Source: a phage
Length of the DNA stretch: 17,779 nucleotides
Direction: 5' to 3' (one strand)
NCBI GenBank assembly: GCA_030820665.1
Contig: GCA_030820665.1_4852.1
The notes under the pieces were generated by a model. That model worked only from the letters and a program-made list of their open reading frames with translations. It made no database searches and was not told the DNA's origin. Below are positions 7,943 through 16,478 of this stretch, piece by piece (positions within the stretch are counted from its first letter, which is position 1; each line of letters begins with the position of its first letter). The translations under genes and the position numbers were made by a program.

Positions 7943-8320
7943 TCACGCATAAAGCGCCTCCATCTTGTACCCAAACATAATTGCATTCTGATGCTCAGTG
8001 CTACCAGAAAACACCAGATAGCGTTTACCTCGATTATCCGTAACGATGTAGGCAGCTGGTGAGTTTTCCTTCCTAAATCTGGCTTCGTCATCACTCCCTT
8101 CATACATCCTCCCACTCGCTGGCAGATACAAATCGAATGTTTGAATTTCCGTTCCGCTGCATTCATTGCTACGTTCATTGAACAGGATAGCCAATCTTGG
8201 GTTGCCATTGGAATGCTTTGCAGGGAATGCGATTCTCCAGCCATCGCACATATACTGACTTGGGTAGGATAGCCATGACTTACCGCGCCTACCCTCCGTA
8301 AGAATCGGCTTACTCGCCAT
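7943..8320 (-). CDS. Hypothetical protein (125 aa), last gene of leftward 5-gene operon
   Basis: ORF 7943-8368 trimmed to ATG 8320, where GGAGGA lies 5 nt upstream. It overlaps the upstream gene by 11 nt. I recognise no family. Confidence 0.6.
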   Translation of the reverse strand: MASKPILTEGRRGKSWLSYPSQYMCDGWRIAFPAKHSNGNPRLAILFNERSNECSGTEIQTFDLYLPASGRMYEGSDDEARFRKENSPAAYIVTDNRGKRYLVFSGSTEHQNAIMFGYKMEALYA

Positions 8321-8585
8321 TATGATCCTCCACAATCCGCACCAGTGAGCACTCAAGATTCGGTGCATTGTAATTACCAGCCAGAAACAGCACGCTACCA
8401 GTGCTAATAAGCACCTGCTTCGCGTTCGCCTGCGACAGATTCTGCACGATGAATTGCGCTGTTTCTGTGCCGATTTTCAGCACTGCGCTGCCGTCGCTGT
8501 TCAGTGATACAAGTTGTGCGGAAGTGTCAGTAATGTTGGTGAAGTTCGCGTTTCGCTGCGCGATTGTGATGTCGCAAAAAGACAT
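8310..8585 (-). CDS. Hypothetical protein (91 aa)
   Basis: GGAGAG lies 8 nt upstream, and the start overlaps the upstream stop (TAATG). I recognise no family. Confidence 0.6.
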   Translation of the reverse strand: MSFCDITIAQRNANFTNITDTSAQLVSLNSDGSAVLKIGTETAQFIVQNLSQANAKQVLISTGSVLFLAGNYNAPNLECSLVRIVEDHNGE

Positions 8586-8887
8586 TATTTAATCTCTCCG
8601 TTCAGTTCATTAACAATTAACGTTGCATAGCCAGCAATATCTTTCCAGCTGTCATCATAAGTCGGGTCGCCATTCAGAATGCGCCCAATCTTGTGCTGAA
8701 TCATGTCGAGCGCCTCGCGTTGACTTGGTGTGAGATTGCGCCAGCCATCTACCTTGCGCATCACATCTTTCAACTCCTGCATAATTTCAGCGCCGTCTTT
8801 GAATTTACCGTATCGACTACCGCGTTCGGTGATGAGTCGCTCTGTTGCGTCAGTATGGCGCTTATCGCCCGTGATTTGTGAACTCAT
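8585..8887 (-). CDS. Helical protein resembling the phage DUF6378-type family (function unknown)
   Basis: 100 aa. 'ERGSRYGKFKDGAEIMQEL....LTPSQREALDMIQHKIGRILNGDPTYDDSWKDIAGYATL' follows the pattern ER...YG....nf..ia.......lt...a..m...K..R......h.DSw.DiaGYA. I remember this pattern from a widespread uncharacterised phage family; the family name is from memory. Confidence 0.55.
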   Translation of the reverse strand: MSSQITGDKRHTDATERLITERGSRYGKFKDGAEIMQELKDVMRKVDGWRNLTPSQREALDMIQHKIGRILNGDPTYDDSWKDIAGYATLIVNELNGEIK

Positions 8888-9374
8888 TGTGATGCATTCT
8901 CCTGAATTCTTTTATTTTTGCTTCTGCTTCTCTTATGTCGGAAAAGTAACCAACTGTGAATCTTTTGCCATTTACTCCAACTCTTGCATGCCACTTGTTG
9001 TGCGATGAACTCCAGTTAACCCCCTTGATACCGCTAGTGTTGTTTTTGTTCATTGCTTTGTTGTGGCTATTCTCAAATTTGCTGGCCTCCCTTAAATTGC
9101 ACGCCCTGTTGTCATTGCGAATGCCATTAATGTGGTCAATCATTTCACTTGCTGGCGCGCCATGAATGCATATCCATGCCAATCTGTGAGCAAGAAAAGC
9201 CCTACCGCAAAGAATTATTTGCACATATCCATCTGGCTTTAAGTAGCCAGCCACACTCCCTTTTTCTGCAATCCTATTCCTTGTCTTTAGCCATTTAAAT
9301 TCCCCAGTTAGTGGATTGTAGTAAAGGTAACTCAATATAAACTCCCTACTCGGCTCATCTCTCCTATGCCTCAT
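8862..9374 (-). CDS. HNH homing endonuclease with C-terminal AP2 DNA-binding domain
   Basis: 170 aa. The HNH_3-type core is 'AHRLAWICIHG....IDHINGIRNDNRACNLREA'. The AP2 module is 'SGIKGVNWSSSHNKWHARVGVNGKRFTVGYFSDIREAEAKIKEFRRMHHNEF'. It overlaps the downstream gene by 26 nt and is visibly more A/T-rich than its neighbours. Confidence 0.9.
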   Translation of the reverse strand: MRHRRDEPSREFILSYLYYNPLTGEFKWLKTRNRIAEKGSVAGYLKPDGYVQIILCGRAFLAHRLAWICIHGAPASEMIDHINGIRNDNRACNLREASKFENSHNKAMNKNNTSGIKGVNWSSSHNKWHARVGVNGKRFTVGYFSDIREAEAKIKEFRRMHHNEFTNHGR

Positions 9375-9934: not shown

Positions 9935-10129
9935 ATGGCGCATGACGAACTGTACGAAGAATCGTTAATCCAGAGGTTGAATGAAGTTGAGCGCACTCGC
10001 GAATGGCTGGAGTGCGAGTTACGAGAAGTGCGCAACCGCCTGCAACGCAAGCGCAGTCAGCAAAGAGATGTCATCGACTGGTCTGGGGGTACACCTAAAT
10101 TTAACAATCTGGGAGAATGGTTGAAATGA
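9935..10129 (+). CDS. Hypothetical coiled-coil protein (64 aa)
   Basis: GGGAGA lies upstream of ATG 9935. 'LNEVERTREWLECELREVRNRLQRKRSQQRD' looks like coiled coil. The stop overlaps the HNH start (ATGA). Confidence 0.55.
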   Translation: MAHDELYEESLIQRLNEVERTREWLECELREVRNRLQRKRSQQRDVIDWSGGTPKFNNLGEWLK

Positions 10130-10656
10130 GCAACATTAGTAAGGAAAGCATTTTAAAGTTCCTCCAGCATGATGAAAATACAGGAAACTTTCTATGGATT
10201 GATAATTTCTCAAGAAAATCAAAGAAAGGGAAGGTGGCTGGAGGTATTACATCGCATGGGTATTGGAGAATTCAACTCCCCATCGGGAGGTTTTACGCAC
10301 ACAGAATGGCGTGGATTGTTTGCAATGGAGATATACCAAACGGATATGAGATTGATCACATAAATGGGAACAAGAAAGATAATCGCATCAGCAACCTAAG
10401 ATTGGTCACAAGAGGTCAAAATGTTATGAATGTAGGCGTGAAAAACAATAATACAAGCGGAGTTAAGGATGTTGTTTGGGACTCTTCGCGAGAAAGGTGG
10501 AGGGTTCAAATTACAGCCAATGGCAAGCATTATTATGGAGGTAGATTCTCGTCAATAACACAAGCAAAAGAGGAGAGGAACAGGCTCATAAAGATGGTTC
10601 ACGGGAAATTTTTGAATACAAAAGGTGAGCAATATGACACTACTAATGAACGATGA
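10126..10656 (+). CDS. HNH homing endonuclease with C-terminal AP2 DNA-binding domain
   Basis: ORF 10117-10656. ATG 10126 is preferred (GGGAGA at 10111-10116, 9-nt spacing). Motifs are 'AHRMAWIVCNG....IDHINGNKKDNRISNLRLV' and 'SGVKDVVWDSSRERWRVQITANGKHYYGGRFSSITQA'. It is a diverged paralogue of 8862-9374(-) and is A/T-rich; a hand count of one 60-nt line gives about 42% GC, against about 57% for a line in the decoration-like gene (14101-14160). Confidence 0.9.
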   Translation: MSNISKESILKFLQHDENTGNFLWIDNFSRKSKKGKVAGGITSHGYWRIQLPIGRFYAHRMAWIVCNGDIPNGYEIDHINGNKKDNRISNLRLVTRGQNVMNVGVKNNNTSGVKDVVWDSSRERWRVQITANGKHYYGGRFSSITQAKEERNRLIKMVHGKFLNTKGEQYDTTNER

Positions 10657-10870
10657 GAAATTACTTGAATGCCCGTTTTGTGGTTGTGATGACGTAAGTG
10701 TTATTGATGACGGCGAATGGTTGCACGTTGAGTGCGGAGATTGTTTTTGCCGCACTGACTCGTATTGCTGCGCATCCACGGCAATGAAGAAATGGAACAC
10801 AAGAGGTGGACACCTCTACACTTCCGACGACTTCAATCAGGCAGCAGAGGAGCGTGATTATGGACTATAA
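10634..10870 (+). CDS. lar: Lar/RalR-family restriction-alleviation protein candidate (zinc-ribbon)
   Basis: ORF 10625-10870. ATG 10634 has AGGTGA 6 nt upstream. 'LLECPFCGCDDVSVIDDGEWLHVECGDCFCRTDSYCCASTAMKKWNTR' follows the Rac RalR/Lar pattern as I recall it (KPCPFCGC..V.V......Y...C.GC..RT.......A...WNKR). It overlaps the HNH 3' end by 23 nt and the next gene by 11 nt. Confidence 0.75.
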   Translation: MTLLMNDEKLLECPFCGCDDVSVIDDGEWLHVECGDCFCRTDSYCCASTAMKKWNTRGGHLYTSDDFNQAAEERDYGL

Positions 10871-11348
10871 ATCACAAATCATGCGCGTGATTATGAATCA
10901 CCCCGGAGCAACGCGCGCATACATTGAGAAGCATTGCGGAGGTAAGCATTCAAGCACCACAACGCATCGCTTACATGAGATGCTTGCTCTTGGATTCATT
11001 CGTCGCGAGAAGTCAGTGATTCGCGGCGGCAAGTGGCAGTATAAATATTTCATCTCTGATGATGCAGCCGGTATTGATGATGCTATTAAGTGCCATTTGC
11101 TTGATAACGCTGGCGCGGAAGTGAAAGAAATCAGTACCACCACTGGCATTGATTATCGCATCGTGAAAAGCCGCATCCGCATTATGTTTCATAACGGTGA
11201 TGTGACGCGAAGCTATGACCACCACAAGAAGCTGTGGCGTTATTCATGGAAGGAGAAGGAAGTCAATGTAAGCAATCTATTTAATTCACTTCTTCGCAGC
11301 GTAAGGGGTCAGCATGGGAAAAGCCAAACGCAAGAAGCAAGAGTATGA
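10860..11348 (+). CDS. Putative DNA-binding protein with two winged-helix-like repeats (162 aa)
   Basis: ORF 10806-11348 trimmed to ATG 10860 (GAGGAG at 10847-10852). Two similar segments are 'IMRVIMNHPGATRAYIEKHCGG....HRLHEMLALGFIRRE' and 'IKCHLLDNAGAEVKEISTTTGIDYRIVKSRIRIMFHNGDVTRS', each followed by a K/W-rich wing-like stretch. The fold assignment is inferred. Confidence 0.5.
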   Translation: MDYKSQIMRVIMNHPGATRAYIEKHCGGKHSSTTTHRLHEMLALGFIRREKSVIRGGKWQYKYFISDDAAGIDDAIKCHLLDNAGAEVKEISTTTGIDYRIVKSRIRIMFHNGDVTRSYDHHKKLWRYSWKEKEVNVSNLFNSLLRSVRGQHGKSQTQEARV

Positions 11349-11490
11349 ACCTCTACCGCCATGCGAAATGTCAGGAATGCCGCAGCAGGAGGATGTGATT
11401 CTCACCGAGGCTGAGTGGCGCAAGGTGGCAAGAGTGCAAATCATGTTCCGCACACTTGCTGAGGATGTACTAAATGAAATGGGCTATTAA
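11314..11490 (+). CDS. Hypothetical protein (58 aa) overlapping both neighbours
   Basis: Not in the ORF track. ATG 11314 has AAGGGG 5 nt upstream. Translation: MGKAKRKKQEYEPLPPCEMSGMPQQEDVILTEAEWRKVARVQIMFRTLAEDVLNEMGY. It overlaps the upstream gene by 35 nt and the downstream gene by 17 nt, and without it 11349-11473 would be non-coding. Confidence 0.45.
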   Translation: MGKAKRKKQEYEPLPPCEMSGMPQQEDVILTEAEWRKVARVQIMFRTLAEDVLNEMGY

Positions 11491-11827
11491 GCATAAATCC
11501 GGCAGAACTCTGTTTGTAACATCGGATGAGTTTATTGCCAATAACCGTAGAAAGATGGGCTGGATAGTAGAGGAAGTGAAGATGACGAGTAGAGAGCAGT
11601 TTGAGCTCCAATGCAGAAATGGGTTGATCAATGGCGGATTAGCAGTGTTTGAAAATGGTGTTTACGCTTCCGAATTAACAAGAGCTGTCTGGGCTGGATG
11701 GAAAGCATCGCGCGCAGCAATTGAAATTGAATTGCCAGAGGAAGAAAGTTTGGGATGCCACGCTATTTACTATGCAGAAGATGTTATTGAGGCAATTGAA
11801 CAATCAGGCTTAAAGGTGAAAAAATGA
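11474..11827 (+). CDS. Hypothetical protein (117 aa)
   Basis: GAGGA lies 8 nt upstream. 'REQFELQCRNG...GVYASELTRAVWAGWKASRAAIEIELP' resembles recurring uncharacterised enterobacterial phage proteins. No function is known to me. Confidence 0.6.
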   Translation: MKWAIKHKSGRTLFVTSDEFIANNRRKMGWIVEEVKMTSREQFELQCRNGLINGGLAVFENGVYASELTRAVWAGWKASRAAIEIELPEEESLGCHAIYYAEDVIEAIEQSGLKVKK

Positions 11828-12150
11828 TTATCCAACTAAACGACATTATGAAAGCAGACATCATTCAGCTTGAAGATTATGACGTGCAACTGGCGTTTGA
11901 AATCGAAACAGTTGAGCGTCAGCTGCAGTATGCTGATAAGAAGAATGATCGTGTCTGGCACGAGAAAGCACTTAAGGCGCGCGACCACATGAAACGCACG
12001 CGAGCGCTTATCAAAACGCGACTCGACAAGCTGTATTTTGGTGAAGAACGCATGTTGCATGGCGCGATACTGGCGCAAATCCGCAAGGAAATGCCAATTG
12101 GCAAGTTTATGTCATACGTTCACCGCGCAAAGCAGGAGGCCGGGTTATGA
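11824..12150 (+). CDS. Hypothetical protein (108 aa)
   Basis: ATGA overlap with the upstream gene. The product looks helical. I recognise no family. Confidence 0.6.
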   Translation: MIIQLNDIMKADIIQLEDYDVQLAFEIETVERQLQYADKKNDRVWHEKALKARDHMKRTRALIKTRLDKLYFGEERMLHGAILAQIRKEMPIGKFMSYVHRAKQEAGL

Positions 12151-15663: not shown

Positions 15664-15682
15664 AAGGGGGTTTATCCCCCTT
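15664..15682. terminator. Bidirectional intrinsic terminator shared by the capsid gene and the convergent HNH gene
   Basis: AAGGGGG (15664-15670) pairs with CCCCCTT (15676-15682) around a 5-nt loop. An A-run lies upstream and CTTTGT downstream. The stop codon of the minus-strand HNH gene (15672-15674) lies in the loop. Confidence 0.85.
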
Positions 15683-16478
15683 CTTTGTATCTAATTTCAC
15701 CGTAAACCATGTACTGTAACATGTAACAAAACTCCCATTCCGTCATATCTGTCCGTAGCCACTTCCTGTTCTTCTTGTAATTGTACTCCGCCAGCTCCGC
15801 TTTTAAATTGTGAAGAGCATTAACCAGTTCTGGATATACGAGGTTATTCTTAACAAACCAGTTGACAGATAAAATATGGTCAATATGCCAATTATTGCGG
15901 TCATCAAAACTCATCCATGGAAGCATGGTTGATTTTATATGCTTAATGAAATCATCCTTTGAGTACCCGAGAACATCATCTACTGTTCTATCAAGCGCAA
16001 TGTCAGATACTCTCATATCAAGCCGCTCAAGCATTTTTCTTAGGAACACGTGGTGTGGGTGCTTCTTTTGCCATTGCCTGACATTATCCAGAGCCTTTTT
16101 ATTGCCTTTCTCTGAGTAGTACCATCTGCGATAAGCTTCCCTTTTCTTTTGTAAAAACTCCTCCTTTTTCTCTGGATTCTCGTTAAGCCTTTGCATCTTC
16201 CTTTTGTTGTACTCCTGTTGTGATTGTTTTCTTTTCTTTTTGTACTCGCTGTTATCCTTGTTTTTCTGCCACTCCTTTTTTCTGTACTCACTTTCCTTGC
16301 GTTTGCGCTCCTCTGTTGTTCTCTGCTTCCTTGTTCTTTCGTATACGCAATGCTTGCATCCGCCTGATGCTGTAAAAAACACAGTTCCACCACATACAGA
16401 GCATGGAATCCATTCACACACAAATTGCTTCAGTCCAGCAACCCTTGCTTCTTGCGCGGCTTCTTTTCTTGTTTTCAT
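15672..16478 (-). CDS. Free-standing HNH endonuclease (N-terminal zinc ribbon, K/E/R-rich repeat region, C-terminal HNH core)
   Basis: 268 aa, with AGGAGTG 5 nt upstream. The zinc ribbon is 'CSVCGGTVFFTASGGCKHC'. A basic repeat region has recurring W/Y..K motifs. The HNH core is 'WHIDHILSV....NALHNLKAELAEYNYKKNRKW' (H-x-D-H ... N ... N..K). It is A/T-rich and on the opposite strand to the surrounding late genes. Confidence 0.8.
   Translation of the reverse strand: MKTRKEAAQEARVAGLKQFVCEWIPCSVCGGTVFFTASGGCKHCVYERTRKQRTTEERKRKESEYRKKEWQKNKDNSEYKKKRKQSQQEYNKRKMQRLNENPEKKEEFLQKKREAYRRWYYSEKGNKKALDNVRQWQKKHPHHVFLRKMLERLDMRVSDIALDRTVDDVLGYSKDDFIKHIKSTMLPWMSFDDRNNWHIDHILSVNWFVKNNLVYPELVNALHNLKAELAEYNYKKNRKWLRTDMTEWEFCYMLQYMVYGEIRYKEGG

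Follow-up and report, generated by a model that had tools for sequence, protein, structure and literature searches.

Two proteins are the textbook examples of restriction alleviation, Lar of the Rac prophage and Ral of phage lambda, and within the Lar family only the Rac protein has been tested. Taking Lar out of E. coli strengthens restriction by EcoKI, and both Lar and Ral are thought to boost de novo methylation, by a mechanism described as unknown in 2011 (PMC3177214); no later account of the Lar mechanism was found in the literature. Rac Lar, or RalR (E. coli K-12 b1348), has also been reported to be a non-specific DNase whose antitoxin is the small RNA RalA (PMC4041452). Here we describe a Lar-like gene, lar, at positions 10634-10870 (+) of a 17,779-nucleotide stretch of phage DNA (assembly GCA_030820665.1, contig GCA_030820665.1_4852.1; hereafter the window). 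Comparison across related phages shows that lar has a tripartite build. A zinc knuckle at the N-terminus is constant, as is a WNTR motif that leads into an acidic tail peculiar to the clade; between them lies a hypervariable core, which forms surface. This constant-variable-constant allelic design, the clade-specific tail and a hotspot of HNH insertion are new here. The Lar-like call itself is not, because GenBank orthologs already carry it; that of phage ST1UNAM is annotated "putative restriction alleviation protein", and those of Bas78, Bas79, Skate, IME207 and many others are labelled "Lar-like restriction alleviation protein".

The window protein belongs to the broad Lar zinc-ribbon family

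The lar coding sequence, taken from the open reading frame (ORF) list and the sequence, opens with an ATG and runs for 78 codons plus a stop (MTLLMNDEKLLECPFCGCDDVSVIDDGEWLHVECGDCFCRTDSYCCASTAMKKWNTRGGHLYTSDDFNQAAEERDYGL). The initial annotation had read a CPFCGC...CxxC...RT...KWNTR pattern in it; the gene is real and all of these motifs are in the sequence (C13-P-F-C16-G-C18; C34-x-x-C37, as CGDC; R40-T41; K53-W-N-T-R57). The four predicted ligands of a zinc ribbon, C13, C16, C34 and C37, are present, with W54-N-T-R57 after them. Type A, the core type to which the window gene belongs (see below), has four further cysteines, C18, C39, C45 and C46, for a total of eight in 78 residues; these are also kept in Lar of phage C1 and of phage ZCEC08, and could conceivably bind a second metal or form disulfides.

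Assignment to the Lar family, as first claimed from the motif pattern, was borne out by three comparisons. The protein scored 39.7 bits (E 6e-10) against Pfam PF14354 (Lar_restr_allev), above the gathering score of 28.6, with residues 8-57 spanning positions 1-57 of the 58 in the profile; it matched PHROG 599, "Lar-like restriction alleviation protein" (E 1.6e-15); and the best structural neighbours of its AlphaFold2 model in BFVD were viral proteins annotated as Lar. The initial annotation had named a second profile alongside Lar_restr_allev, NCBIfam TIGR03655 (anti_R_Lar), and here the score of 34.2 bits fell below the cutoff of 39.6. A Pfam scan at E values up to 1 returned Lar_restr_allev and one weak unrelated family and nothing else; no Ral family appeared, and the literature likewise treats lambda Ral and Lar as unrelated. 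PADLOC gave no hit, and a sequence search of the PDB with Lar found no solved relative.

The AlphaFold2 model, with a mean pLDDT of 68 overall and 77-85 in the ribbon, consists of two beta-hairpin strands, a helix at residues 47-54 and a low-pLDDT helix at 64-75 in the tail. The nearest solved fold was the zinc ribbon of Elf1 (PDB 6ir9_M), a eukaryotic and archaeal transcription elongation factor to which there was also a weak NCBIfam match; this likeness is at the level of the fold, at 20% identity, and carries no functional inference.

RalR of K-12 is likewise a small four-cysteine ribbon with CPFCGC, a second CxxC and W-N-(T/K)-R, and falls in the same Pfam family; the two proteins are 33% identical over 48 ungapped residues (BLASTP, E 3e-10). 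Rac lar lies in the recombination region of a cryptic prophage, whereas the window gene is carried by a virulent siphovirus. Against the NCBIfam equivalog for RalR, NF007260, the window protein reached only 27.5 bits, with a cutoff of 113. Judged by these profiles, it is a member of the broad Lar zinc-ribbon family and not a RalR equivalog, since the Pfam threshold was passed and the equivalog cutoff was missed by far. The C-terminal extension said to be absent from RalR needs a smaller claim: the string quoted as 25 residues has 21 (residues 58-78), and although this acidic tail is indeed longer than and unrelated to that of RalR, RalR has an 11-residue tail of its own after WNKR (TTGNNNGGVHV), so that the net extension is about 10 residues of different sequence.

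A Lar ribbon core with KWNRR is also found in gp27 of the lambdoid Stx phage 2851, encoded upstream of ninB and 32.5% identical to the window Lar; that phage is temperate, its gene lies in the nin region, and its tail, AGDEANLSASQRSNQK, is unrelated. A profile search of 1.84 billion representative proteins collected 6,593 clusters of the wider Lar family, and of the 150 best representatives only about 6 had a segment resembling the window tail. The acidic tail is therefore specific to the clade, as the tail of the lambdoid Stx phage also argues. Many members of the wider family carry 2-5 tandem zinc-ribbon domains in one polypeptide (for example P0029, P0030, P0034 and P0079).

lar combines constant ends with a hypervariable core

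The window derives from a Skatevirus-like virulent siphovirus, 96% identical to Salmonella phage ST1UNAM and 94% identical to Escherichia phage vB_Eco_ZCEC08, and the earlier impression of a lytic phage thus agrees with its relatedness. By tblastn, 218 records of phages of Salmonella, Klebsiella, E. coli and Shigella contain lar, and wherever its neighbour is annotated, that gene is a regulator of the MarR-like or winged-helix type. In Skatevirus-like virulent siphoviruses, lar is an accessory gene with conserved synteny. We compared 65 Skatevirus-type loci encoding 58 distinct proteins (the window, 2 GenBank phages and 62 IMG/VR contigs), in which the gene divides as follows.

10646-10684, +, constant N-terminal module: residues 5-17, MNDEKLLECPFCG, with knuckle C13/C16; near-invariant in the 65 loci
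10685-10792, +, hypervariable core cassette: residues 18-53, including knuckle C34/C37 (the second); the window has the type A allele
10793-10867, +, constant C-terminal module: WNTR (residues 54-57, shared family-wide) at the end of a predicted helix, then the tail GGHLYTSDDFNQAAEERDYGL, residues 58-78

The N-terminus is constant across loci as MMNDEGLLECPFC, and the C-terminus as WNTRxGHLYTADDFNQAAEERDYGL in the Salmonella/E. coli lineage, with the Klebsiella lineage ending in ...YKQDAMERANGL. On this basis we define a Skatevirus-clade Lar subfamily by the MMNDxxLLECPFC N-terminus, the WNTRxGHLYTxxD(F/Y)xQxAxER tail and the overlap with the MarR-like gene; alignments of 26 and 65 sequences, together with synteny, place the window protein within it. 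Orthologs of this type (ST1UNAM WEV89076, Bas79_0028, Bas78_0029, ZCEC08 WVQ01307) share the locus order, a 64-residue gene (up64) followed by lar and the MarR-like gene, and the same N-terminus and tail; they differ in carrying other core types, Bas79 being for example 57% identical overall, and most are without the HNH gene that precedes lar in the window. The ZCEC08 protein (annotated hypothetical, with the same HNH upstream) is 100% identical to that of the window.

Between the two constant ends, the core ranges from 35 to 45 residues and falls into 21 discrete types among the 65 loci. Every type keeps the second zinc knuckle, and the zinc-ligand positions are retained in 65 of 65 loci. 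In the Salmonella/E. coli lineage, mean pairwise nucleotide identity was 0.81 for the N-terminal module, 0.59 for the core, 0.85 for the C-terminal module and 0.85 for the downstream gene; a sliding identity profile of 14 loci fell from 0.85-0.92 in the flanks to 0.35-0.55 exactly over the core. The constant ends have a high proportion of synonymous differences (pS 0.41-0.68; 0.68 in the N-terminal module) and a low ratio of nonsynonymous to synonymous differences (pN/pS about 0.16-0.17; 0.17 in the N-terminal and 0.16 in the C-terminal module, the latter comprising the acidic tail with its predicted helix 64-75), and are therefore constrained as protein and not as DNA.

Within core types, selection was also purifying (pN/pS about 0.1-0.3); between the window and phage C1, for instance, the core of lar has pS 0.378 and pN 0.033. 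Three core types are common to the Salmonella/E. coli and Klebsiella lineages. The core of locus L029 is 95% identical at the nucleotide level to those of L044, L046 and L067, with downstream genes only 56% identical; conversely, 108 pairs of loci have MarR-like genes that are at least 93% identical and cores below 60%. The core thus moves between phage lineages as a cassette of stable alleles. Relaxed constraint or drift was considered as the source of core variability and rejected, given the within-type pN/pS of 0.1-0.3 and the recurrence of identical types in distant lineages.

In the 14-locus alignment, a second sharply variable, indel-rich patch was seen at about 11590-11710, inside ORF 11474-11827 (117 residues, phrog_343, unknown function), and a third drop in identity from about 1.4 kb past the lar start, roughly window position 12050 onward, with coordinates shifted by indels.

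An improbable RalR-type DNase or toxin-antitoxin pair

The initial annotation had pointed to the pairing of RalR with an antisense RNA, and to antisense transcription as a property that lar might share. Such a partner found no support in the 17.8-kb window: the best blastn-short match to RalA was 15 nt at 93% identity (E 0.58) and lay outside lar, so that no RalA homolog was recognised; the lar mRNA found at most 11 nt of complementary sequence in the remainder of the window, within the 9-14 nt obtained from shuffles and hence at chance level; an Rfam scan of the window returned sub-threshold chance matches only; and promoter- and terminator-like sites in it were at the level of shuffles. That Lar is a RalR-type DNase toxin, degrading host DNA or paired with an antisense RNA as a type I toxin-antitoxin system, draws on the published precedent (PMC4041452), the 33% identity and the common CPFCGC. 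We consider it very improbable indeed: besides the missed equivalog cutoff, the missing RalA partner and the chance-level promoters and terminators, the predicted fold has no recognisable nuclease active site, and a hypervariable surface in discrete alleles is unexpected for a non-specific nuclease.

A proposed polymorphic host target

Several features of lar together form a signature of host interaction, namely the 21 core types, the contrast in identity between core and flanks, purifying selection within types and sharing across lineages; the pattern of the core is what would be expected for a protein surface tracking a polymorphic partner. A binder is suggested over an enzyme, because the ends are conserved at the protein level and the wider family often has 2-5 tandem domains, in the manner of binding modules. 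We therefore tentatively favour, without giving it quite an even chance, a reading in which Lar is no enzyme and binds a polymorphic host target, on precedent a restriction-modification system of type I in which modification is favoured over cutting, with the core providing specificity and the tail common docking.

Under this proposal, Lar would bind a polymorphic host protein stoichiometrically, and the precedent of Rac Lar makes the type I restriction-modification complex the expected partner. Once bound, the complex would cut less and methylate de novo more; phage DNA would then become modified as it replicates and in the progeny, with no shielding of the first infecting genome. Recognition of one host variant or another would depend on the variable core, and the constant tail would supply a shared docking or effector function. 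The proposed mode matches that of lambda Ral, a small protein with which the phage both relieves EcoKI restriction and raises de novo modification (PMC3177214). In a more specific form, which we regard as possible if rather doubtful, the lar genes would be naturally occurring alleles in a series: scaffold and acidic tail stay constant and bear a specificity cassette that is swapped horizontally and comes in at least 21 types, every one of them suited to its own variant of some polymorphic component of host defence. If true, the series would be a phage-side counterpart of the constant and variable regions of HsdS specificity subunits, and would give a direct handle on the Lar mechanism; if the design reflects target specificity, the roughly 200 phages sequenced would supply ready-made specificity swaps and a removable tail for finding both target and mechanism.

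A number of observations weigh against this proposal. Its anti-restriction component is a putative function transferred through the family from a single tested protein, 33% identical to that of the window, and the TIGR03655 score was below cutoff. The lar cluster is placed just upstream of the capsid genes. Published plating data cover two phages with their lar orthologs in place, in alleles that differ from that of the window. Bas78 (ortholog Bas78_0029) had an efficiency of plating (EOP) of 0.019-0.029 on EcoKI and 2.3e-4 to 5.7e-4 on EcoCFT_I, and of about 1e-4 or lower on type II and III systems; for Bas79 (ortholog Bas79_0028) the EOP was 0.033-0.1 on EcoKI and 1.4e-4 to 5.7e-4 on EcoCFT_I, and 2e-4 to 1e-7 on type II and III systems. 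Both phages apparently have 1 EcoKI site and 3 EcoCFT_I sites, as judged from the column order of the phage table. The restriction by EcoKI is about the size expected for a single site without alleviation. EcoKI thus restricted these phages 10- to 50-fold, and EcoCFT_I more than 1000-fold, which makes it unlikely that lar gives the infecting genome strong protection; partial alleviation or a higher share of modified progeny may yet occur, and restriction at first infection does fit a mode in which modification is enhanced. On these plating data, therapeutic phages of Salmonella, E. coli and Klebsiella that bear the label "Lar-like restriction alleviation" should not be taken to resist type I restriction. 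The Lar family is defined functionally, after King and Murray (1995), by relief of EcoKI-family restriction together with enhanced modification. The same study reportedly found that Rac Lar acts on both EcoKI and EcoBI, and if that holds, it is not obvious why at least 21 specificity types would be needed against type I systems. EcoKI sites (AACN6GTGC) numbered 0 in the window against 2.85 +/- 1.65 in shuffles, which is not significant.

A further point against a type I target comes from a PhageMaP preprint, in which knock-outs of Bas63 gene 32 ("90% homology to Lar") suggested a target other than type I restriction (PMC11482910). Bas63 is, like the phage of the window, virulent, and its Lar-family gene has a host-dependent effect on fitness; it belongs to a different phage group, and the likeness is taken from the authors' description only. 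The gene mattered in MG1655, BW25113 and S17-1 and less in DH10B, a pattern that tracks type IV restriction and not intact type I (PMC11482910). It is thus conceivable, if on balance unlikely, that the same architecture and mode of binding serve against another polymorphic defence, such as type IV restriction or an undescribed system. The continued sensitivity of the Skatevirus relatives to both type I systems tested agrees with this, and many core alleles would suit a highly polymorphic target; yet the sole biochemical or genetic precedent for the Lar family is EcoKI (PMC3177214), what is concluded from Bas63 is indirect and was published as a preprint, and neither PADLOC nor anything else ties lar to a specific system.

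Homing endonuclease genes at the edges of lar

The genes and signals around lar are as follows.

9935-10129, +, conserved 64-residue gene (up64): phrog_15697, function unassigned
10117-10656, +, HNH homing-endonuclease gene: PF13392 (HNH_3), E 3.4e-20, phrog_99; between up64 and lar
10624-10629, +, Shine-Dalgarno-like GGTGAG, read from the sequence: 4 nt before ATG 10634, within the 3' end of the HNH gene
10860-11348, +, MarR-like winged-helix gene: phrog_1687, E 4.6e-58; Pfam MarR_2 weak, at 19.2 bits with a cutoff of 27

The overlaps of lar with its neighbours were given exactly in the initial annotation, 23 nt with the HNH ORF and 11 nt with the ORF that starts at ATG 10860. Its further suggestion of a counter-defence operon was not sustained, in that the nine small neighbours, apart from the HNH and MarR-like genes, belong to PHROGs of unknown function. 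ATG 10634 is preferred as the lar start because the spacing of GGTGAG fits it; an in-frame GTG at 10625 is improbable, being inside that ribosome-binding site.

No HNH gene is present at the upstream junction of lar in ST1UNAM, Bas79 and most other loci. In HNH-free relatives the 64-residue gene lies directly 5' of lar, or a single additional small gene comes between the two; the junction alignment shows it running straight into lar in ST1UNAM, with the HNH gene interposed in the window. The lar start ATGACA survives this insertion, and the N-terminus is shortened from MTAPHMPTMNDE to MTLLMNDE; residues 1-4 of the window protein are MTLL, where orthologs usually begin MTAPHMP(M/T)M, and the change adjoins the insertion. 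Upstream insertions occur in the window, ZCEC08 and L057, the last with a different HNH gene (44% identical), and downstream insertions, between lar and the MarR-like gene, in L045, L049 and Bas78 (L081), the tail being replaced in L045 and L049. HNH insertion at the two edges of lar has thus happened independently and with different genes, which makes these edges a place where homing-endonuclease genes insert repeatedly. A second HNH_3 gene of the window, at 8862-9374 (-), is 40% identical to the one beside lar.

Traffic of homing endonucleases may help core cassettes to move, although most divergent loci are without an HNH gene beside lar. A stronger version would make the mosaic core mainly a by-product of that traffic, through co-conversion of neighbouring DNA and escape of the target site, and not of selection on Lar function; the independent abutment of HNH genes on either side of lar is in its favour. 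We hold this to be very unlikely. Besides the HNH-free loci with divergent cores, the type A core occurs both with an HNH gene (window, ZCEC08) and without one (phage C1, L006), variation is in frame with zinc ligands kept and purifying selection within types, and such traffic would explain how the cassette moves and not what the protein does.

Possible coupling of lar to the MarR-like gene

The adjacency of lar and the MarR-like gene holds in both lineages of the 65 loci, except where an HNH gene is interposed. Their 11-nt overlap (10860-10870, ATGGACTATAA) is kept in both lineages even though the MarR-like proteins of the two are only about 36% identical, and this conservation suggests that the two genes may be translationally coupled. 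It could also be taken to mean that Lar is a phage-internal factor with no anti-defence role, either a zinc-ribbon partner of the MarR-like regulator or a regulatory binder of nucleic acid. The flavour of the tail (FNQAAEERDYGL or YKQDAMERANGL) tracks the MarR lineage, and the closest solved fold, with its weak NCBIfam match, is that of Elf1, a protein of the transcription machinery. However, the correlation of tail with lineage is confounded by physical linkage; L045, L049 and Bas78 tolerate an HNH gene that parts lar from the MarR-like gene, and L045 and L049 a replaced tail as well; and the core varies independently of the MarR-like gene in the 108 pairs described above, which would be unexpected for a co-evolving partner. 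We therefore judge a phage-internal role quite unlikely, and retain the host-target binder as the favoured reading.

Additional observations on the phage group

A search for literature mentioning PF14354 turned up three papers and no functional data on the Skatevirus-type Lar clade. A second Lar paralog has been reported for phage KFSST1; a motif scan and an HMM (hidden Markov model) built from the lar alignment found none in either the window or the remainder of ZCEC08. In Salmonella phage Vi II-E1 (L080), a 'repeat_region' entered by the depositors at 8135-8410 of the record covers most of the lar ortholog. Right after the major capsid gene of the window and on the other strand from it, ORF 15672-16478 (-; 268 residues) matches PHROG 1035 (endonuclease VII) with an E value of 5.7e-19. 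ZCEC08 is the nearest relative examined that is fully annotated; just past the right end of the window, at 17687-18484 of its record (L082), lies a putative C-specific DNA methylase beside a ParB-like gene, which, independently of lar, might counter restriction in phages of this type.

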